Below, piece by piece: positions 9,288 through 45,031 of a DNA stretch of 45,312 bases. This DNA comes from Veterinaerplatzvirus T145P1. Within the stretch, counting starts at the first letter, position 1, and each line of letters opens with the position of its first letter. The notes under the pieces were generated by a model. It saw nothing but the letters and a program-made list of their open reading frames with translations, was not told the origin of the DNA and searched no databases. The position numbers and the translations under genes are program-made. The stretch lies in the sequence record OZ035786.1; one strand, given 5' to 3'.

Positions 9288-9292
9288 ATTGC

Positions 9293-9336
9293 ATAGCACT
9301 TTTTGCTAAAGCGGTTATTCAACTTTGCTGTATAGT
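9293..9336 (+). promoter_or_regulatory. phage promoter family copy
   Basis: atagcactttttgctaaa, 22 bp, tatagtta, then cctcatcgaaacgaaa leader. Confidence 0.6.
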
Positions 9337-9369
9337 TACCTCATCGAAACGAAATGAGAGATTAAAGAA

Positions 9370-20549: not shown

Positions 20550-20594
20550 ATAATACAACCGTCAGTGCGGAATGTCTTTAGCTATTCGTGCTAT
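20550..20594 (-). promoter_or_regulatory. phage promoter family copy (minus strand)
   Basis: Reverse complement reads atagcacgaatagctaaag, 22 bp, tattat, then catcaaaacgaaac leader before the lipoprotein gene. Confidence 0.5.
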
Positions 20595-20690
20595 TGCATA
20601 CACGTAACCGATGTAACTCGATGTATACAATCTCATCCGCGGAAAATGATATACGCACTGTTACGCAAATTTACGCATTGGTTACATTAA

Positions 20691-20752
20691 AATATCTATA
20701 TATATCAACCTTTTACTCTTATTATTATTATATATATATTACTGTGTATATC
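20691..20752. repeat. AT-rich repeat block copy 1 (second copy near 39755)
   Basis: aatatctatatatatcaaccttttact-(TTA)n-tatatat-tactgtgtata; within a divergent intergenic region. Confidence 0.6.
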
Positions 20753-20851
20753 ATGTAACTACTTCTATAGAGTGTTCCGGTTATAATTTTAATATCATGT
20801 GGATTTATACAGTATTGCGCTGCAGCTATACCAATGCACCCTCAGCAATAA

Positions 20852-21250
20852 ATGATATACACGATATACACGATGGTTACATTGAGCTATAGCTGGGCCG
20901 AGATGCCAAAAAACGTAACTAGTGCCAATGCCTACACGGAATTACAAGGATTCACGCGTAAACTTAAATCAACGATTGGCAAAACCAATTGGACTGGTTA
21001 CGGTGCCGAATATATAGTTAACTCATCGAAAGCAAACAACCAGAGAGATACAGAAATGACCTACTACATTATCAAAGAGAAAAACAACGCACTGTTCGGT
21101 GATTGCTACTTTGGCGGCCCTGCTGGATATACCACAGATAAGAAAGAGGCTGACAGATTCGAGACTAAAGAAGAAGCCCGAGATGTGCTGACTGGTTACT
21201 TCACTGAAGAAGATTTGAAGTCTGTTAAAGTGGTTAAGGTTAAGGAATAA
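20852..21250 (+). CDS. hypothetical protein
   Basis: 132-aa ORF; first ATG lacks a clear SD and sits inside gatatacac repeats; in-frame ATGs at 20873 and 20903. Confidence 0.4.
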   Translation: MIYTIYTMVTLSYSWAEMPKNVTSANAYTELQGFTRKLKSTIGKTNWTGYGAEYIVNSSKANNQRDTEMTYYIIKEKNNALFGDCYFGGPAGYTTDKKEADRFETKEEARDVLTGYFTEEDLKSVKVVKVKE

Positions 21251-22414: not shown

Positions 22415-22879
22415 ATGAACAAAGATTGCTGGCAGACTCCTTTAGACTTATTCAAACCGATAGATGATAAATACAAATTCAAGGTTGACGTGTGCGCAAG
22501 CCAAGAAAACGCGCTTTGTAAATATTACTGGACTGTAGATGATGACTGCTTGCAACAGGATTGGGGAGATGATGGTGGTTTCGTTTGGTGCAATCCACCA
22601 TATAGCAATCCATTACCATTTGTTGAAAAGTGCCAGCAATACGGCTATGCGGTCATGCTATTGAATCAGGATACGTCAACAAAATGGGCTAAGATAGTCT
22701 TTGAAAAAGCATCAAAGGTTATACTTTTATCAGACAGGGTTAGGTTTATAAATCCAGTAACAATGGAGGTTGGTAAGTCAAATCCTAAATGCCAGATGAT
22801 TGTAGTTTTCGACAGGCGTAGCAATTCTGGAGTTGATATACGTTGGTGTTCAATAAAAGAAATTCATAAGCAAATTTAA
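22415..22879 (+). CDS. dam: DNA N6-adenine methyltransferase (phage Dam-like)
   Basis: In-frame ATG at residue 49 of track ORF, right after upstream stop. NPPY catalytic motif (WCNPPYSN) and N-terminal CWQTP. Confidence 0.75.
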   Translation: MNKDCWQTPLDLFKPIDDKYKFKVDVCASQENALCKYYWTVDDDCLQQDWGDDGGFVWCNPPYSNPLPFVEKCQQYGYAVMLLNQDTSTKWAKIVFEKASKVILLSDRVRFINPVTMEVGKSNPKCQMIVVFDRRSNSGVDIRWCSIKEIHKQI

Positions 22880-22924
22880 ATAGCATGAATTGCTAAAGAC
22901 AAAACTAAAGGGTGTGGGTATGAT
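22880..22924 (+). promoter_or_regulatory. phage promoter family copy
   Basis: atagcatgaattgctaaag abutting dam stop, tatgat about 23 bp downstream. Confidence 0.55.
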
Positions 22925-22953
22925 TACCCAATCAACAACGAACGAGGTTAAAG

Positions 22954-26683: not shown

Positions 26684-26706
26684 TGTGTAGAGTCTCCATT
26701 TGTAAA

Positions 26707-26725
26707 ATAGCACGAATTGCTAAAG
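26707..26725. promoter_or_regulatory. orphan copy of the TAGCA-N5-TGCTA palindrome (no TATAGT box downstream)
   Basis: atagcacgaattgctaaag in + orientation between primase terminator and tailspike start, both on minus strand. Confidence 0.5.
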
Positions 26726-26747
26726 TGGATTGTAGCATCTTTGAGTC

Positions 26748-26770: not shown

Positions 26771-27697
26771 TTAGTCTAGTAATTCGCTCGCCTTGTATAT
26801 TCGCTTTCTTATTCCTGATTTGAAGTGGTTATCATTATTTGGCATTACAACATCAAGATTGCGATCGTCAGCAACGGCGAGTAAATCAAAATCGCTGCGA
26901 GTACAAGCGATGCGTAACTTGTAGTTTCTAAGCGCGTAAGCAACCATTTCCATGTTGTAACTGGAGTGGCAAACAAGCACACAGCGGTTCCCAGTAGCAA
27001 TGTGAACGCGATAGCCATCAATGAAATTATCGACCAGATAAGCGTACTCATCATCCTTAAAGGAACCAATAACAGAAACAGACTGGCGAGAATAATCTTT
27101 TGCAGCATAACTAACATCTCCCTCCTCATTGATAAACATTACATTGCACATCTCTTCTGATATGCCGTCACTATAAGCCATAAAGCACGGAACTGCGTGG
27201 ATTAATTCACCTGATTTCGTCCTGCCAACATCAAAACCGAACTCGCTATAGATACCCTCGTATGTACTGAGAGGAGTTGATTCTACTCTTTCCGTCCTTT
27301 CCATTATCTCTAAGCATCTTTCGTGATCAATCTGAGCGCCCATTTTGTATGGTGATGTTCTTGAAGCTCTTTTGTTTGCTTTTGATATAACCTCTACTGG
27401 AACGAGATTCAGCCAATCACCAAGCGTATCTATTGTTTCACTATAACTCATTCCAGAACACTTCATTACCCAACCAACACCAGAATCATTTCCACACTGG
27501 TTGCATATTGCTGCGCCATTTCCCTTTTCTTGACCTAACTCATCAGTGAAGCGAAACCTATCCTTGCCAAAGCAGTAAGGGCACGGACCATGTTTCTTGC
27601 TGAGATTCTCCTTTGTCCATCCAAGATGCGATGAGTAGAACTCACTCCACATCCCTTTCATCTTGGCTATCACTTCGTTCTTATCATGGTGACTCAT
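26771..27697 (-). CDS. DNA primase (zinc-ribbon plus TOPRIM-like)
   Basis: Start moved to Met10 (SD ggaggt 4 nt upstream). CPYC...CNQC zinc-binding pair; acidic AVADDRNLD TOPRIM-like motif. Confidence 0.55.
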   Translation of the reverse strand: MSHHDKNEVIAKMKGMWSEFYSSHLGWTKENLSKKHGPCPYCFGKDRFRFTDELGQEKGNGAAICNQCGNDSGVGWVMKCSGMSYSETIDTLGDWLNLVPVEVISKANKRASRTSPYKMGAQIDHERCLEIMERTERVESTPLSTYEGIYSEFGFDVGRTKSGELIHAVPCFMAYSDGISEEMCNVMFINEEGDVSYAAKDYSRQSVSVIGSFKDDEYAYLVDNFIDGYRVHIATGNRCVLVCHSSYNMEMVAYALRNYKLRIACTRSDFDLLAVADDRNLDVVMPNNDNHFKSGIRKRIYKASELLD

Positions 27698-27752
27698 AAT
27701 TACCTCCATAAACAATAAAGGCACTATACATAATGCAAAGTGCCATTGTTTA

Positions 27753-28232
27753 TCAAATCGTGCTGTTTTGCTCTTTCTTCTTTTGGTTCTCTAATTTTAT
27801 CTTGCGCCATGAACGACACTCTGGCTTAGTGGCTAATTCAGCCTCAGTGACGACTCGCAGCATATGGCGCTTTTTGCACCGAAGTGTCAGCGGTTTCCCG
27901 TTGCCGTCGAATTGCAGGTCTGGTCGGCAGAATGTAGCGCGAAAACCTTCTCCATTTCGCTTATAGTAGTTGTGAGAAAGTTGAGCCCCACGCGCAGAAA
28001 TCATACCGCGCTTAAACCATTCTTCTACAGCCTGTGGTGTTACCTTTAACTGCTTTGCGATATTCGCCTTTGTGCCGAAGAAATCAAGAACTATCTCTAG
28101 CCGCGCGCGTAGCCCGGCTCTTACTTCATCTTTTAAAACATAGTAGCCTGAAGGTCGTTTACGTTGCTTTTTGTCTTCGGTGCGGATGGTTCCGTTATTG
28201 CCGTTAATTGTTCGCTTGTCGACTGTATTCAT
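27753..28232 (-). CDS. HTH DNA-binding protein (Cro/YdaS-like)
   Basis: Helix-turn-helix-like segment TKANIAKQLKVTPQAVEEWFKRG; basic termini; its SD overlaps a palindrome copy. Confidence 0.5.
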   Translation of the reverse strand: MNTVDKRTINGNNGTIRTEDKKQRKRPSGYYVLKDEVRAGLRARLEIVLDFFGTKANIAKQLKVTPQAVEEWFKRGMISARGAQLSHNYYKRNGEGFRATFCRPDLQFDGNGKPLTLRCKKRHMLRVVTEAELATKPECRSWRKIKLENQKKKEQNSTI

Positions 28233-28244
28233 TTCATTACCTCA

Positions 28245-28287
28245 ATAGCATTTTTTGTTAAAAGTCATCCTGATTTGATGGTATCAT
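28245..28287 (+). promoter_or_regulatory. phage promoter family variant upstream of helicase, overlapping the SD of the divergent HTH gene
   Basis: atagcattttttgttaaaa, then tatcat about 21 bp downstream. Confidence 0.45.
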
Positions 28288-30328: not shown

Positions 30329-30744
30329 AGATTACAGATAAAGAAGATTACATTGAGTTTTACCCGGGTCCGGTTAAGTCATGCCCTAAAGAGGATGACG
30401 AACAAATCTTTTGCTCTGATTGGGTTAAGTATAACTACCCAGATATGGTATTTTTCCATTGCGTGAATGAGGGAAAGAAAACCATTGGTCAAGCAAGAAA
30501 AGACCAGGCTAAGGGGCTTCTAAAAGGCGTATCAGACTGTATGTTTCTTATTCCTGAATCACTTCGAGGTAAGTATCCTTTCGGAGCTATAGAGCTAAAG
30601 AGGGCTGGCAAAACTCAAGCAAGTCCAGTCAGCGAAGAACAGAAAGCATTCCTGAAAAGTGTAATGGAATCAGGCGGTTTCTCGGCAGTCGCCTACGGAC
30701 GTGAGGGTTTTCTTGCAGCATTCAAAGAAATGATTTCAAAATAG
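30325..30744 (+). CDS. VRR-NUC domain nuclease (putative)
   Basis: ATG overlaps helicase stop (ATGA); GVSDCMFL...GAIELKRAGK resembles the D...E-x-K core of VRR-NUC. Confidence 0.5.
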   Translation: MKITDKEDYIEFYPGPVKSCPKEDDEQIFCSDWVKYNYPDMVFFHCVNEGKKTIGQARKDQAKGLLKGVSDCMFLIPESLRGKYPFGAIELKRAGKTQASPVSEEQKAFLKSVMESGGFSAVAYGREGFLAAFKEMISK

Positions 30745-30784
30745 CACGAATTGCTAAAGGCGATTTTAAAAGATGGGGTATAGT
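30741..30784 (+). promoter_or_regulatory. phage promoter family copy
   Basis: atagcacgaattgctaaa with TAG stop inside, 22 bp, tatagtta, ccatcgaaacgaaa leader. Confidence 0.6.
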
Positions 30785-30820
30785 TACTCCATCGAAACGA
30801 AACACAAAGAGAGAAATAAA

Positions 30821-31594: not shown

Positions 31595-31785
31595 TTAATG
31601 CAACTTGTGTAAAAGCAAATGGTTTCTTTACTCTACTTGAAGATTACGAAATTATCTTTAATTCAGATGGCGCAATAACAGTATTGAGCGATAATGGATG
31701 CTATTGGTTCGTTAGTTATCAAGGTGACGGGTATTACGGGTGTAGAGATTCGAATGGAAAAGAAGTTAGCTTCTTAGTTGAATAG
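31591..31785 (+). CDS. hypothetical protein
   Basis: 64-aa ORF, ATGA overlap upstream, stop inside next promoter motif. Confidence 0.45.
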   Translation: MINATCVKANGFFTLLEDYEIIFNSDGAITVLSDNGCYWFVSYQGDGYYGCRDSNGKEVSFLVE

Positions 31786-31825
31786 CACTTTTTGTTAAAA
31801 CTCAAATCCACGTATGGATTATATT
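31782..31825 (+). promoter_or_regulatory. phage promoter family copy (variant)
   Basis: atagcactttttgttaaaa, 22 bp, tatatt. Confidence 0.5.
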
Positions 31826-31855
31826 AAGCACATCAACAACACATAGGATTAAGAG

Positions 31856-32563: not shown

Positions 32564-33694
32564 ATGGCAACAGCAAAAATCACCAACGAACAATTGCGCG
32601 AAGAGTTAGCAAACGGCATGACCAACAAGGCAATCGCAGAGAAGTACGGAATGAACATTCGCAACGTTGAATTGCGTCGCAGTAAATTAGCTAAACAAGG
32701 CGAAGGGCATGGTCGCGATGTAAGCAACTTAATCCCTCAGGGCTATGCAGTTAAAGGCGTCTCCAGCTTAATTGGTGCTGATGGCGAGATTAAGCAACAG
32801 TGGGTTAAATCAGATATCGACAAGGAGAAGCAAGAAGAGATGATGCTTCAGGCAATTCAGGCCCTAACTGATGAGTTGCCGCGTGAGAAAGCTAAAGCTT
32901 TAAGGGTTGGTTTATGGGAAGATACTTTAAGCCTTTACCCCGTGTTCGACCTCCACATTGGAGCAATGGCTCATCATGCTGAGTGTGGTGAGAACTATAG
33001 TACTGAAATCGCTGAGAGAGTTCTTAATGATTACTTTGATTACGCGGTTGCAAAGGCCCCCAACTCCAAGAAAGCTGTATTGCTGATTGGGGGTGACTTC
33101 CTTCACTCTGACGGAATGGAAGCGGTAACACCAACCAGTTGTCATGTTCTTGATCAAGATAGCCGTTATCACAAACTTGTTTACGTAGCAGTGCGATCGA
33201 CACGTCGAGCAATTAGCCGCATGCTTGATAAGCACGCCGAGGTTGAGGTTCAGATTATTCCAGGTAACCACGATCTCTCAGGTATGATTTGGCTTCGTGC
33301 TGCAATGGCAGCTTTCTATATGGATGAGCCTCGAGTTAATGTTGATGCGTCCCCCGCTGCGCTTCACGTAACGCAATTTGGGAAGACGCTGCTTGGTTAC
33401 TGCCATGGGCACGAACTCAAAAAGCCTGATACCCGACTATCAGCACTGGCTCGTGACCATCGCAAAGCATTTGGTGAATCAGAGTATGTTTACACCCATT
33501 CAGGCCACTATCACCATCAAACTATTACGGAAGGAAATCTGGGTATTGATGAATCACACGGCCAGCTTGGAGCGAAAGATGCGTACAGTGCTAACGGAGG
33601 TTATCGCTCTTACCGACAGGCTTCGGTGATAATTTATAGTCCTGAGTTTGGTGAGATTGGACGATTTACTTGCCGCCCGGAAATGTTTAGTTAA
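32564..33694 (+). CDS. HTH domain fused to calcineurin-like metallophosphoesterase
   Basis: N-terminal HTH-like TNKAIAEKYGMNIRNVELRRSKL; phosphoesterase motifs DLH, GGDFLH, GNHD, CHGHE, HSGHYHH in order. Confidence 0.6.
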   Translation: MATAKITNEQLREELANGMTNKAIAEKYGMNIRNVELRRSKLAKQGEGHGRDVSNLIPQGYAVKGVSSLIGADGEIKQQWVKSDIDKEKQEEMMLQAIQALTDELPREKAKALRVGLWEDTLSLYPVFDLHIGAMAHHAECGENYSTEIAERVLNDYFDYAVAKAPNSKKAVLLIGGDFLHSDGMEAVTPTSCHVLDQDSRYHKLVYVAVRSTRRAISRMLDKHAEVEVQIIPGNHDLSGMIWLRAAMAAFYMDEPRVNVDASPAALHVTQFGKTLLGYCHGHELKKPDTRLSALARDHRKAFGESEYVYTHSGHYHHQTITEGNLGIDESHGQLGAKDAYSANGGYRSYRQASVIIYSPEFGEIGRFTCRPEMFS

Positions 33695-33737
33695 TAGCAC
33701 TTTTTGCCTAACGCATGCCGTAGAAATGCGGCATAAT
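33694..33737 (+). promoter_or_regulatory. phage promoter family copy (variant with hairpin in spacer)
   Basis: atagcactttttgcctaa, 22-bp spacer containing atgccg/cggcat inverted repeat, cataat, cacatcgaaacgag leader. Confidence 0.5.
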
Positions 33738-33778
33738 TACCACATCGAAACGAGATGAACTAAACGAGGAAACACAAA

Positions 33779-35595: not shown

Positions 35596-37179
35596 TCACC
35601 CCAGCAATCTCGGATTAATGTAAACTTTATCACCAATCAGGCACGTATAGTTTTTCTCATCAAGCATTGGCAGTAAGTGATCTTTAATCTTCGTCATCAC
35701 TCCAGCCTGAGCCTCGAACGGCTTAACCTTTCGCGCCGCTTCATACAATGAGCGAATGCCAACAACACCCTTACCGTTTTTACCCTGCTTGATCAGGATA
35801 TCAATCAGCTTATTCATCTCGGCATTGTCGCCAGCGTGACCAGCCGCGTTGGCAGATGACAAATAAGTCTTGCTAAGCTCCTGGAACATTATTACAGCTT
35901 CTTGCATGGTATCAAGCTCAATCTCTCTGGATTTCTGTGGACTCCCACCGCTAGGGTTGAACCAGTTGCGCACTGTGTGAAGAACAGCAGCAATCCTGAT
36001 AGCCTGCTTATCGAATTTACCCAGCGCGCCGCGCAACATTGTGTGGGAATACTTACCGCCGTCCGCAAGGTGCGGCTCCATTTCCTGACGTGCCCGGTTT
36101 AGATATTTCATCGCTGAGTTGCTAACCGTCAACTTTACTTCTTGCTCATTCATGATTTCGTGAACCAGGCGGAAGTAGTTAGCCTTAAGCTCACCATCAA
36201 TTGGCTCGTAAGTTGAGTTGCCATTCTCATCGACGAATACACGCTCGCCAAGGAATGATTTTTCACGCACAAGTAGAAAACGTTCCGACACACCAATACC
36301 ACGAGCACCAGCATTCATGATTGCGTTTATTGTCTCATCTTGCGCAATTACAGAGATGCATCCCATAGCGACGAAGCTCATGTTGTTTTCTGCGTTCGCA
36401 CGCGCAATGGACACGTTACCAGCATCCCACGCCTTGAGTACGAGCTCGCTGTTCGTTTTCTTTGAGCCATCACCATAGGTCATACCTAGCAGAGAGTTCA
36501 CGCTCGTTGCTTCATCAGAGATAACCGCGAAGTTGCCCTGGCGGTTGTTTATTCGCGCAAGACCTTCAGGCGTCGTATCTGATACTGGAAATACGATATC
36601 GCACATCTTTTCCAGCTTCTCCTCTAAATCCTCTTTCTCCTCAAAGAGAGACGCCATCTCTGATGGTGACTTTTCCTGCTTCATCTCTTTGGATAATGCA
36701 GACAGCTTTGCCATAATCTTTTTACGCTCACGCTTTCGCACTTCATTAAGCCGCTCAGTCTCAGCAATCATTGGCGCAATAGAAAGCGAGTTAATTGCTG
36801 ATTTACCTGTGGATGGTGGCTGACTGGTTACTACGTATAGAGAGGTCGGTTGCTGGGTTCCGTGATACTCTACTGTAAAACGTCCCAGCATGGCGGCAGA
36901 AATACACCCCAGAAAGTGCATATAAGCTGAAGACTCTGGAAATTGAACAGAACGGGCAATATTGGCTGACAGCTTACCAACAACATCAATGTCATTACCG
37001 AGTGAGATTACGGGATACTTGTCATTAGCCGCATCAATCTCAACTGGCGCTTTCCAGAATGATTGAGACTGACGATATCCATTGGCATTAATAGCGACGC
37101 GCAGGGGTGGGAGGTTGTCTGCGGCAGCAATTGCCATAACCTGTTCAACAGATAGCTTATCTTCGTTGAAATCAAACAT
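35596..37179 (-). CDS. hypothetical protein with P-loop-like motif (possible replication-associated NTPase)
   Basis: 527 aa, SD ggagag; PPSTGKS Walker A-like motif; Lys/Glu-rich central linker. Confidence 0.5.
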   Translation of the reverse strand: MFDFNEDKLSVEQVMAIAAADNLPPLRVAINANGYRQSQSFWKAPVEIDAANDKYPVISLGNDIDVVGKLSANIARSVQFPESSAYMHFLGCISAAMLGRFTVEYHGTQQPTSLYVVTSQPPSTGKSAINSLSIAPMIAETERLNEVRKRERKKIMAKLSALSKEMKQEKSPSEMASLFEEKEDLEEKLEKMCDIVFPVSDTTPEGLARINNRQGNFAVISDEATSVNSLLGMTYGDGSKKTNSELVLKAWDAGNVSIARANAENNMSFVAMGCISVIAQDETINAIMNAGARGIGVSERFLLVREKSFLGERVFVDENGNSTYEPIDGELKANYFRLVHEIMNEQEVKLTVSNSAMKYLNRARQEMEPHLADGGKYSHTMLRGALGKFDKQAIRIAAVLHTVRNWFNPSGGSPQKSREIELDTMQEAVIMFQELSKTYLSSANAAGHAGDNAEMNKLIDILIKQGKNGKGVVGIRSLYEAARKVKPFEAQAGVMTKIKDHLLPMLDEKNYTCLIGDKVYINPRLLG

Positions 37180-37955: not shown

Positions 37956-37991
37956 TTTGTTTTCCTTTGTGTCTTTCGTTTCGATGGGATA

Positions 37992-38035
37992 ACTATACAG
38001 GAAAAGCCCCGAATGGCTTTAGCGATTAGTGCTAT
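37992..38035 (-). promoter_or_regulatory. phage promoter family copy (minus strand)
   Basis: Reverse complement reads atagcactaatcgctaaag, 22 bp, tatagtta, tcccatcgaaacgaaaga leader. Confidence 0.55.
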
Positions 38036-39425: not shown

Positions 39426-39470
39426 AGTATACGCATAGTTAGCCACACTGTCTTTAGCAAAAAGTGCTAT
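39426..39470 (-). promoter_or_regulatory. phage promoter family copy (minus strand) with roughly 200-nt leader
   Basis: Reverse complement reads atagcactttttgctaaag, about 22 bp, tatact, then ctcatcgacacgg. Confidence 0.5.
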
Positions 39471-39754
39471 TCGTTAGATTTATGTATTGTTGCAGATATT
39501 GCAATGATTCACTTGATTATTGCACATACAGCAATATTGCTTCCGATGCAATGATGTTTTTGATTGTTGCGAAAAGTGAAATTAAGTGGTGAGTGAGTGA
39601 ATGAAAGATGGATGGACTACCATACAAGTTGATTTTTACCAATCTATGGGAGCCTCACGGATATACGCGTATCCTCCGTATACTCAGTGTCGTCACAAAA
39701 GTTAGTGACCACTAACCTACGTTTTTACGCGATATATACACACGATATACAATA

Positions 39755-39830
39755 TAATATCTATATATATCAACCTTTTACTTTATTATTATTATTATTA
39801 TTATATATATGTATACTGTGTATACCGGTA
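39755..39830. repeat. AT-rich repeat block copy 2 (first copy near 20691)
   Basis: aatatctatatatatcaaccttttact-(TTA)n-tatatat-tactgtgtata with a longer TTA tract; the track ORF here is a poly-Leu artefact. Confidence 0.6.
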
Positions 39831-40030
39831 ATTGGTGAGATTATTGATATGTTCCGCGCAGATATTCTGACACCTGTCAGAAATGGATGGCATTGTAGGA
39901 ATAAAAGGCACATATATAGGGAATGGCTTCAAAAATCTGTACACATCGGATACGGCACATTTACAACCAGCAATGGAGGGGCCTCTGGAGGCAAAAAGCG
40001 TATCCATGATAAAATAGACGAAAATATACA

Positions 40031-40059
40031 TTGACCGACACGTAAATAGATGGCAATAT
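40031..40059 (+). promoter_or_regulatory. sigma70-like promoter
   Basis: TTGACC, 17-bp spacer, CAATAT, upstream of 40100 gene. Confidence 0.5.
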
Positions 40060-40099
40060 AGCAGTCACTGAAACGAAGTAAAACAAACGAGGTATCAAC

Positions 40100-40648
40100 A
40101 TGCAGAAAGTAACACTAGGTGAAGTTATCCGTGAGATGGTGCGCAACGCGATGGTGTCCGAGAGTGGTGAGTTTAAAGTTCCGGTTAGCCAGATATTCAA
40201 ACTGGTTCGAGGCAAGGAATACCCTGAAATGGTGTATGACGAAGAGACTAGTGAGATCCTCAACCTGGCAGATAGGGCGATGCCGGAACTAAAGAACTCA
40301 TACATCTATAACACAGTGTCGAGAATGACAGAGCTTCGCGATGCTAATAAGCGAGCGAGATATAAGTTCATCTGGATTGATGATGACGGAGAGCAAACAA
40401 GGCCCGGTAGCTTCGACGGTGATGGCGCTGATAAATACCTGGTCATATACATTGAGAACGGCGCGCACTGGACTGGGAGTCGCGAAAAGAAAAAGCAGGA
40501 AGCGGAGAAAGAGGCGGCTATCATTGAAAAGTTCAAGTCTAGACTGCTCAAGCTGTCACCAAGTGTTGCTGGCTTGGAAGGTGAAGAACTTAAGGGCGCT
40601 GTTACAATGATTAATGCTTATCAGGAAATGATTAAGGAGACTAAGTAG
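40100..40648 (+). CDS. hypothetical protein
   Basis: 182-aa ORF, SD gagg; Lys/Glu-rich C-terminus. Confidence 0.6.
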   Translation: MQKVTLGEVIREMVRNAMVSESGEFKVPVSQIFKLVRGKEYPEMVYDEETSEILNLADRAMPELKNSYIYNTVSRMTELRDANKRARYKFIWIDDDGEQTRPGSFDGDGADKYLVIYIENGAHWTGSREKKKQEAEKEAAIIEKFKSRLLKLSPSVAGLEGEELKGAVTMINAYQEMIKETK

Positions 40649-40738: not shown

Positions 40739-40782
40739 ATAGCACTTTTTGCCTAACGCGGTAATGCCATGGATGGCATAAT
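40739..40782 (+). promoter_or_regulatory. phage promoter family copy (variant with hairpin in spacer)
   Basis: atagcactttttgcctaa, spacer with atgcca/tggcat inverted repeat, cataat, cctcatcgaaacgag leader. Confidence 0.5.
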
Positions 40783-40820
40783 AGCCTCATCGAAACGAGA
40801 TACGTAAATGAGGATTTAAA

Positions 40821-42242: not shown

Positions 42243-42572
42243 ATGAGTAAATACGATCGCAAGATTATTGGCATTGATGGCACAGTAACAACAGTAGATG
42301 TTTATCGTGTTCTTGATGCGTTTGGCGTATCTGACCCAGCCACTCAGCATGCGGTAAAGAAGATGCTTTGCACTGGCCTGCGTGGACACAAGGATTACTT
42401 AACTGACCTTAATGACTCCATTGAGTCACTACAGAAGGCTAAAGAGATTTACTGGCAGAAGATGATTCATGAATCCGATAAAATCACTGATTCAATTTTA
42501 AATCCACCAAAAGAAGCGAGATTTAGTACTGCTAATGGTTCAGAATTCACTTTCGGAAAGGTTAGAGTCTAA
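42243..42572 (+). CDS. hypothetical protein
   Basis: 109-aa ORF; upstream TGgTATAAT extended -10 at about 42081. Confidence 0.5.
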   Translation: MSKYDRKIIGIDGTVTTVDVYRVLDAFGVSDPATQHAVKKMLCTGLRGHKDYLTDLNDSIESLQKAKEIYWQKMIHESDKITDSILNPPKEARFSTANGSEFTFGKVRV

Positions 42573-42616
42573 ATAGCACGAATTGCTAAACCCGCTCCTG
42601 CGGGTTTTGTTATAGT
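42573..42616 (+). promoter_or_regulatory. phage promoter family copy with terminator hairpin in the spacer
   Basis: atagcacgaattgctaaa, spacer contains cccgc-tcct-gcggg followed by ttttgtt, then tatagtta. Confidence 0.55.
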
Positions 42617-42644
42617 TAGTTCACACCAATCGAGAGGTAAGAAA

Positions 42645-42952: not shown

Positions 42953-43086
42953 TTTACATCCACACGTACTACACTGGTAAGTTTAATAGCGTCAAACATG
43001 TCCGTGTTCACGATAACTACGAGAGCGCAAAAGCTCAATGGTTGGTTCTTGGTGGTGACATTAATTCATACAGAGTTGCTGAGTAG
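42949..43086 (+). CDS. hypothetical small protein
   Basis: 45-aa ORF ([15 protein letters not shown]...), ATGA overlap upstream, TAG stop inside next promoter motif. Confidence 0.35.
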   Translation: MIYIHTYYTGKFNSVKHVRVHDNYESAKAQWLVLGGDINSYRVAE

Positions 43087-43126
43087 CACTAATTGCTAAA
43101 ACAGTATTGGGGTAATTTGTTATAGT
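43083..43126 (+). promoter_or_regulatory. phage promoter family copy
   Basis: gtagcactaattgctaaaa, 22 bp, tatagtta, ccccatcgaaacgagagagg leader. Confidence 0.55.
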
Positions 43127-43156
43127 TACCCCATCGAAACGAGAGAGGAATAAGAA

Positions 43157-43823: not shown

Positions 43824-43953
43824 ATATGTTATCGCATGTGAACGACTGGTCTTTGATATGAAGACTTTTCACTGGTTCATAATTAAGGATTTAGTTAAGC
43901 CTTATAAGAAAGGTGTTATGCCAGAGCAGTTTGTTAAGTCGTTCTACAAATAG
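43810..43953 (+). CDS. hypothetical small protein
   Basis: 47-aa ORF (MSFTEYVIACERLVFDMKTFHW...), TAG stop inside next promoter motif. Confidence 0.3.
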   Translation: MSFTEYVIACERLVFDMKTFHWFIIKDLVKPYKKGVMPEQFVKSFYK

Positions 43954-43993
43954 CACGAATTGATAAACCAGATCGCCACGGATGGCATATAAT
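43950..43993 (+). promoter_or_regulatory. phage promoter family copy (variant)
   Basis: atagcacgaattgataaa, spacer with gcca/tggc inverted repeat, TATAAT. Confidence 0.55.
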
Positions 43994-44026
43994 CACCATA
44001 TCAATACAACGAGAGAGATAAAGCAA

Positions 44027-44954: not shown

Positions 44955-45031
44955 GCTCGAGTGGCGAAAGTGGATATCGCAAGAGACTTCTAATCTCTAG
45001 ATTGCTGGTTCGAATCCAGCCTCGAGCGCCA
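44955..45031 (+). tRNA. tRNA-Arg (anticodon UCU), CCA encoded
   Basis: Hand-folded cloverleaf: acceptor gctcgag/ctcgagc, D-stem gcga/tcgc, anticodon stem agaga/tctct with loop cttctaa, T-arm gctgg-ttcgaat-ccagc, discriminator g, CCA. Confidence 0.75.

Follow-up and report, generated by a model that had tools for sequence, protein, structure and literature searches.

Introduction

Satellite phage P4 has two cis-acting iteron regions, ori and crr, both of which are bound by its alpha primase–helicase. Bacillus phage SPP1, a virulent siphovirus of the pac type, carries the origins oriL and oriR, where initiator boxes lie beside an AT-rich region. In phages T4 (oriF and oriG) and T7 (the primary origin), a defined promoter stands upstream of a DNA unwinding element (DUE), and synthesis is primed by its transcript. 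DNA synthesis of phage T1 needs the elongation functions of the host but is not known to need its initiation functions. The stretch analyzed here, which we call the window, is the 45,312-nucleotide (nt) sequence of Veterinaerplatzvirus T145P1 (record OZ035786.1), and it contains two copies of an AT-rich block with a (TTA)n(TA)n tract. Judging from the sequence, we tentatively propose that these blocks are paired, iteron-flanked unwinding modules and candidate replication origins, a reading that we consider possible rather than probable. Duplication, conservation, minimal duplex stability, fixed spacing, the enrichment and orientation of the flanking repeats, the presence of separate promoters, and the MCM-like fold of a phage helicase speak for it.

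As in P4, there are two separated cis regions with the same short repeats, and the phage encodes, at 26771–27724, a zinc-ribbon primase of the primase–helicase (P4 alpha/T7 gp4) type. However, its primase and helicase are the products of separate genes, the helicase is MCM-like and not of superfamily 3 (SF3), and the copies are 19 kb apart as opposed to 4.5 kb in P4. The likeness to SPP1 consists of a virulent headful siphovirus with two distant homologous origin-like elements, whose repeats adjoin an AT-rich region, whereas the G38P initiator and the DnaB-type helicase with its loader are unrelated, and oriL is situated inside the initiator gene. With the virulent coliphages T4 and T7, the phage shares an AT-rich unwinding element tied to early or middle promoters and several (here, putative) origins per genome, although its tract would lie inside the putative promoter.

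The origins of Staphylococcus aureus pathogenicity islands (SaPIs) have an AT-rich center and at least two iterons on each side, which run in opposite directions and are bound by a self-loading Rep protein via its C-terminal winged helix (PMC9371898). The blocks share the AT-rich center and short (5–9 nt) repeats in opposed directions, with two right-side repeats in copy 2 only. Moreover, the phage encodes a ring helicase with C-terminal winged-helix topology; the SaPIbov1-type Rep belongs to superfamily 6 (SF6), and the DUF3987 protein of the phage is SF6/MCM-like. In contrast, the SaPI ori lies immediately downstream of rep, whereas the phage blocks stand apart from the helicase gene by 2.5 and 15 kb, are present in two copies per genome, and have more degenerate repeats, of which one or two stand on the right side.

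Two genome papers bear on origins in such phages: the SU57 authors searched for an oriC-like origin and found none (PMC7718038), and no origin-like repeats were found in TLS, in the helicase gene or elsewhere (PMC11447400). Our literature search, which did not include the T1 and Rtp genome papers, found no earlier description of paired AT blocks, and a prior mention is possible; a search for Drexlerviridae transcriptomes returned nothing useful. As kinds of element, iteron-flanked AT-rich origins and AT-rich early control sites are well known; what appears to be new is that such an element has been identified in T1-like phages, that it is paired and family-wide, and that its spacing is strict.

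Results

Two copies of one block in the divergent intergenic regions

In a megablast search, Veterinaerplatzvirus T145P1 genomes matched both regions at 99.7–100% identity, followed by a series of Rtp-like phages of the Drexlerviridae/Braunvirinae. As the gene order of the 45.3-kb window is also that of Rtp and T1, we take the window to be the complete genome of an Rtp/T1-like coliphage (Drexlerviridae, Braunvirinae), numbered from the small terminase gene.

A repeat search paired 20683–20757 with 39748–39822 on the same strand, 19,065 bp from start to start, and gapped local alignment widened the homology to 20661–20750 and 39725–39824. A 27-nt core, AATATCTATATATATCAACCTTTTACT, is identical at 20691–20717 and 39756–39782, which is far beyond chance in 45 kb. 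The blocks occupy both divergent intergenic regions in the same orientation, and copy 2 has a minus-strand cluster on one side and a plus-strand cluster on the other. An earlier note on this DNA had described a second copy of the block at 20691, in the same orientation about 19 kb away and between minus-strand and plus-strand early clusters; the exact core, the measured distance, and the gene layout all agree with this description, and the pairing holds across the family. The parts of the two copies are as follows.

20661..20752, plus strand: copy 1, whole module, with phased repeats at 20661–20687, the core at 20691–20717, the tract at 20719–20738, and the inverted 9-mer GTGTATATC at 20744–20752.
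39725..39751, plus strand: copy 2, left repeats in direct orientation, TTACGC at 39725, TATACA at 39735, and TATACA at 39746.
39756..39782, plus strand: copy 2, 27-nt core, which holds TATCAACCTTTTA (39768–39780) and the −35-like TTTACT.
39783..39809, plus strand: copy 2, all-A/T tract (TTA)7(TA)3, the least stable duplex segment of the genome.
39810..39826, minus strand: copy 2, right repeats, a pair of TATAC-type motifs, TGTATAC-TG-TGTATACC, inverted with respect to those on the left.

The tract of copy 1 is (TTA)4(TA)4, or 20 nt, at 20719–20738, and that of copy 2 is (TTA)7(TA)3, or 27 nt. The longer (TTA)n that the note had ascribed to copy 2 is therefore real for the tract itself, but the note missed that the spacing of the flanks is unchanged: the additional TTA units of copy 2 stand in for 'C...TTACTG' of copy 1, so that the distance from TTTACT to TGTATAY is 27 nt in both copies. 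The 10-bp palindrome noted near 39665 was located as well (ATACGCGTAT, 39663–39672), and it is not conserved in the relatives compared. A different 10-bp palindrome, AGCTATAGCT, lies downstream of copy 1 at 20885–20894, with an Rtp counterpart at 413–422.

The paired block is conserved across subfamilies

The core is nearly invariant across the Braunvirinae. Seven of the eight distinct Braunvirinae whole genomes scanned contain exactly two (TTA)n(TA)n runs, in the same orientation and in the divergent regions; in the eighth, Msk, point changes in both tracts escaped the regular expression, and the block is still present at both sites. Copy 2 of Rtp is more diverged and forms a gapless 123-nt alignment with Rtp copy 1. 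An AT block at both homologous sites was also found in T1 (Tunavirinae), Jk06 (Rogunavirinae), and TLS (Tempevirinae). Jk06 and copy 1 of TLS retain a (TTA)n(TA)n run, Braunvirinae, Rogunavirinae, and TLS all share the 3-nt period of the tract, and a right-hand element, GTATATC(R)TGTAAC, is common to T1 and the window phage.

Concerted evolution of the copies has modest support, with a paralogue identity of 0.85 here as compared with 0.60–0.73 across subfamilies, but the picture in Jk06 is unclear. In Rtp, each of the two copies is followed by the motif GAGCTATAGCTGGGC, which points to an ancestral duplication of about 300 bp, that is, of more than the AT block. A plasmid or mobile element as the source of the block was rejected, as no match was found among 72,556 plasmids. 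Left of the copy-1 region (20559–20600), the genes vary among phages, with a cor-like lipoprotein gene in the window and Rtp, a Dcm methyltransferase gene in JeanPiccard, and unrelated sequence in several others. Because homology restarts exactly at the leftward promoter box, the copy-1 control region acts as a mosaic boundary.

The tracts are the least stable duplex segments of the genome

Calculation from nearest-neighbor stacking energies placed the two blocks first and second in instability among the duplex segments of the genome at 30, 50, and 80 bp, with z scores of 4.5–5.6 against 3.1–3.5 for the next segment. The copy-2 tract ranks first at all three lengths (z 4.9–5.6) and copy 1 ranks second. 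The blocks likewise take ranks 1 and 2 in T1, Rtp, JeanPiccard, Msk, A110b, and Jk06. Altogether, in seven Drexlerviridae whole genomes of three subfamilies, the window included, the two least stable segments lie at the same two divergent regions. A hairpin or cruciform was also considered and rejected, as the single-strand folds were no better than those of shuffled sequences (z −0.6 and +0.9).

Spacing across the tract is strictly kept

Additional instances of the block were gathered from IMG/VR and metagenome contigs. The distance from TTTACT to the first TGTATAY is 27–28 nt in 34 of 36 instances and is equal for both copy types (27 and 27 in the window). Values determined by hand are 27 and 27 for Jk06, 28 for Rtp copy 2, and 26 and 28 for TLS. 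With AACCTTTTACT and ACTGTGTATA as anchors, which serve less well, the gap is 24 nt (n = 18), 23 nt (n = 3), 25 nt (n = 1), or 20 nt (n = 1) in copy 1 and 32 nt (n = 9) or 33 nt (n = 1) in copy 2, and the 27-nt tract is kept in nine of ten window-type copy-2 instances from relatives and metagenomes. The usual changes of the tract are the gain or loss of a single T, which turns TA into TTA or the reverse, and no whole-unit (3- or 2-nt) length variants were found among the block instances compared. The right flanks of the compared genomes are only 65–85% identical (15–35% different). An unconstrained seven-unit trinucleotide repeat would presumably have drifted over such distances, which suggests that the spacing is under selection.

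Given this conservation of length without unit slippage, the block is no contingency microsatellite, and a hypervariable tract of this kind was rejected on the 27–28 nt spacing and the lack of repeat-number variation. It is also very improbable that the block is a neutral duplicated microsatellite or, as a 115-amino acid (aa) open reading frame (ORF) over copy 2 would have it, a coding segment. The sequence is indeed of low complexity and the ORF is mechanically present, but four subfamilies keep both copies with site and orientation unchanged, the length of the copies stays within 1 nt in those 34 instances, and the reading frame is broken in relatives, as detailed below.

Within the species, 20719–20738 is polymorphic: the window and two T145P1 isolates have 20 nt, and a third isolate (OZ035767.1) has the family-typical 21 nt, with one additional T.

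Opposed repeats flank the tract

The gatatacac-like repeats of the earlier note are present and strongly enriched in both control regions. There are 17 GATATACAC-like 9-mers with at most one mismatch genome-wide, of which nine fall in the two control regions where 0.38 would be expected, and TATAC-type 9-mers are ~17- to 24-fold enriched there. To the left of each tract lie three direct repeats, 10 and 11 bp apart; those of copy 1 are TTACGC at 20661, TTACGC at 20671, and TTACAT at 20682, while those of copy 2 overlap GATATACAC-like 9-mers at 39731, 39733, and 39744. To the right of the tract, the TATAC-type motif flips, appearing as GTGTATATC at 20744 and as TGTATAC-TG-TGTATACC at 39810–39826, where GTGTATACC is found at 39818 in minus orientation. 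This map of direct left and inverted right repeats is shared by both window copies and both Jk06 copies. Copy 2 has three repeats on the left and two on the right, copy 1 has two or three on the left and one clear inverted repeat, and all are degenerate.

The repeat word differs between subfamilies: Braunvirinae and Rogunavirinae have TATAC, TLS has GTGAACA, and T1 has GTGTAAC together with TTACGCC. Against the whole-genome background, these words are ~17–18-fold enriched around both blocks in the window genome and in T1. Since the words are subfamily specific and the architecture is conserved, we infer that they would be recognized by a phage-encoded DNA-binding protein rather than by host sigma-70. 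In TLS, the flanking repeats GTGAACA/TGTTCAC are located at 140–150 and 408–430 in one of the two sequences compared and at 460–480 and 697–718 in the other. They resemble the type I iteron of satellite phage P4, TGTTCACC.

Candidate host factor sites

The core contains TATCAACCTTTTA at 20703 and 39768, which is a perfect match to the core consensus of integration host factor (IHF), WATCAANNNNTTR, with an AT-rich 5′ flank. Two of three substitutions in the IHF core of relatives fall in its NNNN positions, and copy 2 of Rtp has one mismatch. The perfect IHF core is a lead only: IHF as the key factor was downgraded, as the core is missing in T1, Jk06, and TLS and is not enriched genome-wide.

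As at oriC and the origins of pSC101 and R6K gamma, the easiest-melting tract adjoins a perfect IHF core, although in the Braunvirinae only. In addition, the flanking 9-mers aTATACACA agree with the oriC DnaA box R2, TTATACACA, at eight of nine positions, and T-rich TTATT motifs lie 5′ of a TGTGnATAt box, as at the DUE-R/R1 junction of oriC. However, neither region contains an exact DnaA box (TTATNCACA), the matches being 8/9 only; GATC sites are lacking, the other subfamilies have no IHF core, and the order of elements differs. An oriC-like origin was rejected on these 8/9 matches and the lack of a GATC cluster.

The block could also be an architectural or regulatory site, in which an AT tract that bends readily and is bound by a phage regulator, and by IHF in the Braunvirinae, would switch the divergent early promoters. 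The block does lie between divergent promoters at both loci, the TATAC motifs touch the proximal promoters too, the perfect IHF core with its AT-rich 5′ flank is found in both copies, and the phage encodes a Cro-like helix–turn–helix (HTH) protein that could serve as regulator (27753..28232; P22_Cro, E = 4e-6, below the curated cutoff; 'transcriptional regulator' in PHROG). We nevertheless judge this reading unlikely. The IHF core is missing in three other subfamilies that keep the block, nothing links the HTH protein to these repeats, the ATAGCAC boxes being equally possible targets of this protein, and neither a bend nor an operator needs extreme instability and pure A/T over 27 nt.

Promoters near the block and promoter-like sequences within it

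Three promoters frame the control regions.

40031..40062, plus strand: proximal rightward promoter of the copy-2 region, TTGACC-N17-CAATAT overlapping the phage-typical TATAGC, followed by the CACTGAAACGAAG leader.
20990..21018, plus strand: proximal rightward promoter of the copy-1 region, TGGACT-N17-TATAGT, with the CATCGAAAG leader, ahead of ATG 21056.
39449..39471, minus strand: leftward promoter box of the ATAGCAC...TTGnTAAA family, which serves the minus-strand early cluster.

The order of a control region is thus leftward ATAGCAC-type promoter, repeats, AT tract, inverted repeats, about 250 bp, and rightward canonical promoter. The promoter of the copy-2 region precedes the first plus-strand gene (40100..40648, DUF7174), lies ~250 bp downstream of the tract, is conserved in relatives, and matches the position of TLS P01 and of a TTGACA-type site in T1. 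That of the copy-1 region is also conserved, 275 bp downstream of the tract, and the first gene behind it is another one in A110b and JeanPiccard. In T1, TTGACT-N16-TATAAT immediately precedes recE. In TLS, only three confident sigma-70 promoters were described, and these include P01 and P51 at the equivalent positions (PMC11447400). The AT block sits ~150–300 bp upstream of the canonical rightward promoter in relatives. Because separate conserved canonical promoters lie 250–275 bp downstream, the block is not the operon promoter.

It could instead be an additional upstream early sigma-70 promoter, with TTTACT as −35, a −10 in the TA run, and a start near TGTATAY, and the repeats as operator or activator sites. 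Such a promoter would act in tandem with the proximal one, or its RNA would prime or activate replication as in T4 or T7. Both copies offer 9/12 matches with spacers of 16–17 bp, in the orientation of the downstream operon in every genome, and Jk06 has TTTAGA/CTTAGA-N16-17-TATGTT/TATAGT (by hand). There are, moreover, few other consensus promoters in the window genome or in TLS, and the ~34 bp from TTTACT to TGTATAY equal a −35-to-+1 distance, a fit for which we keep the upstream promoter as the main rival. Even so, we hold it to be doubtful. The number of promoter-like matches in such AT-rich DNA is not clearly above that in shuffles (8 versus 3.9 ± 2.1 and 6 versus 3.2 ± 1.5), and matches occur on both strands. 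Each operon already has its conserved canonical promoter with a phage-typical leader, the block is not followed by a conserved ORF, an Rfam family, or a structure with covariation, and the T1 blocks lack the promoter geometry. Furthermore, either candidate promoter of copy 2 tolerates 3-nt changes of the tract, so that promoter geometry fails to explain the missing unit slippage. A genome-wide scan for consensus promoters was uninformative, as almost all matches of at least 10/12 lie inside genes. Were the block a promoter, the 21- versus 20-nt tract of the T145P1 isolates would shift the spacer from TTTACT to TATATT from 18 to 17.

The genome also carries at least 15 promoter-like repeats of the AAATAGCACnnnTTGCTAAA family, in which a TATAGT −10 follows the TTG box by 22 nt and is followed by the conserved leader CATCGAAACGA. 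They are located on the plus strand at 2113–2177, 9291–9354, 22877–22926, 26704–26734, 28237–28267, 30738–30802, 31780–31843, 33692–33755, 40739–40800, 42570–42619, 43083–43144, and 43947–43996 and on the minus strand at 20577–20604, 37961–38034, and 39449–39471. The AAATAGCACnnnTTGCTAAA/ATAGCAC family corresponds to the 21-nt direct repeat described for TLS (PMC11447400). As 22 nt is too far for a normal −35, the spacing suggests that these promoters depend on an activator.

The neighboring probable pac region

The beginnings of two phage records align with a TTGCA/TGCAAT cluster at 39488–39572, namely the first 60 nt of that of T1, at the left end of a 2.8-kb terminal repeat (repeat_region 1–2800), and the start of that of Rtp. 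This cluster, which adjoins copy 2 only, is probably the pac region. Copy 2 lies 200–280 bp to its right, and the SU57 authors placed pac in this intergenic region (PMC7718038), so the block might be thought part of the recognition site. We find this hardly credible, because a second, equally conserved copy stands 19 kb away with no TGCAAT cluster, and the T1 end maps to the cluster and not to the AT block; the block as pac site was rejected on these grounds.

Nearby, a 37-nt stretch at 39600–39636 (aatgaaagatggatggactaccatacaagttgatttt) is 95–100% identical in AugustePiccard, BEK2, BEK3, ZL19, DTL, and Rtp, six otherwise diverged phages that share nothing else of the 500-bp query around it.

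A candidate initiator

The best candidate for a protein acting on the blocks is the following.

35596..37179, minus strand: candidate trans-acting partner, a 527-aa DUF3987/MCM-like helicase (Pfam E = 5.6e-42).

An AlphaFold model of this protein was built from a 34-sequence alignment and had a mean predicted local distance difference test score (pLDDT) of 89.4. Whereas a PDB sequence search with the helicase found nothing, the best PDB matches of the model in a fold search were Mcm2-7 and archaeal MCM, with E values down to 6e-6. The last 75 residues of the model (the 451–521 stretch) have the winged-helix order alpha–beta–alpha–alpha–beta–beta. On the basis of this model, the DUF3987 protein is an MCM-like helicase with C-terminal winged-helix topology, whose DNA binding is putative. 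In agreement, DUF3987 proteins have been classed as MCM-related members of SF6 and as probable replicative helicases, with a winged helix–turn–helix at the C terminus (Kazlauskas et al., PMC4889955). The T1 record, for its part, notes that the T1 primase is similar to P4-like alpha proteins.

Open reading frames over the control regions

The copy-2 region is overlaid by one long frame.

39687..40034, plus strand: 115-aa ORF, spurious, with a GTG start, in which the tract is read as LLLLLLL.

Nine relatives have a window-type right flank (five isolates and four metagenome contigs), and all nine carry one extra A at 39902–39906. With this base, the poly-Leu frame ends after 61–77 aa in five of them (67 aa in three) and is absent in the other four, and the downstream frame is open in only some of the nine. 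The A4 instead of A5 at 39903–39906 in the window lineage thus makes the 115-aa ORF a lineage-specific fusion of two nonconserved frames. No Shine–Dalgarno sequence precedes its GTG, it has no Pfam match, and the annotations of 2725-N35 and JeanPiccard leave this 700-bp region empty. Hence the earlier suspicion that the ORF is not real was well founded; by sequence comparison, it is an artifact and not a gene. An internal 61-aa ORF (ATG 39849, with GGTGAG upstream) was rejected too, as its frame is not conserved in the nine relatives and it gave no Pfam match. Likewise, a structured noncoding RNA downstream of copy 2 was rejected, since Rfam gave nothing at the gathering level (best E = 0.12) and the RNAalifold covariation term was −0.98 kcal/mol.

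To the right of copy 2, a highly conserved noncoding stretch of ~60 nt (39856–39915) includes the perfect palindrome TTCTGACACCTGTCAGAA (39865–39882), which shows no compensatory changes and is broken in SU57 and in some metagenome contigs.

In the copy-1 region, a 132-aa ORF of the rtp46 type spans 20852–21250, with upstream ATGs at 20852 and 20873 that are not conserved. The conserved promoter and leader at 20990–21050, the other first gene in A110b and JeanPiccard, and a PHROG 5247 match that covers only residues 69–132 indicate that the DNA is noncoding up to 21055. The 132-aa ORF is therefore probably over-extended, and its true start is most likely ATG 21056 (64 aa).

A tRNA-Arg gene (anticodon TCT) is located at 44955–45031, as in other T1-like phages.

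Discussion

We propose that each block may be the core of a conserved cis-acting unwinding module between the leftward and rightward promoters of the divergent early control regions. A phage DNA-binding protein, for which the winged helix of the MCM-like DUF3987 helicase is the best candidate, would bind the repeats on both sides of the tract. By the twin-domain principle, divergent early transcription could then add negative supercoiling. The (TTA)n(TA)n tract would melt first and the helicase be loaded, after which the P4-alpha-like primase and host DNA polymerase III would take over. In the Braunvirinae, the perfect IHF core beside the tract may add a bend.

Several observations weigh against these modules being origins. 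The need for two copies has no explanation, the flanking repeats are short (6–9 nt) and degenerate, and the TATAC motifs stand at positions typical of operators, adjoining the −35 of the proximal promoter (TATACATTGACC, 40025–40036) and forming a tandem pair at 20854–20871. Both blocks contain sigma-70-like sequences that are co-directed with the downstream operon, TTTACT-N17-TATATT in copy 1 and TTTACT-N16-TATTAT in copy 2, each with 9/12 matches. The IHF core occurs four times genome-wide where 3.06 would be expected, which is not above chance, and it is confined to the Braunvirinae, as T1, Jk06, and TLS lack an IHF consensus at distances of up to 200 bp from their blocks. There is no GATC in either block region. 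The blocks are not adjacent to the helicase gene but 2.5 kb and 15 kb from it. Finally, the T1 blocks depart from the 27–28 nt spacing, with 31 and ~36 nt (by hand).

A more elaborate version, which we regard as quite improbable, would have two co-oriented origins that are fired by supercoiling, each with its tract clamped by opposed iterons that the winged helix binds. The 3-nt periodicity would correspond to a trinucleotide register of the ATPase on single-stranded DNA, making the tract a phage counterpart of the bacterial DnaA-trios.

For annotation, the consequence is that neither the 115-aa ORF nor the N-terminal half of the rtp46-type 132-aa ORF merits a gene call. T1 belongs to the classical set of seven T phages, and phages like it are notorious contaminants of laboratories and fermentations. 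Where genome papers found no origin (PMC7718038, PMC11447400), the present analysis offers two precise candidate sites, each of less than 100 bp, and a candidate initiator. If the promoter or regulatory reading were true instead, the blocks would be a second class of phage-specific control element, present in exactly two copies beside the ATAGCAC repeats.

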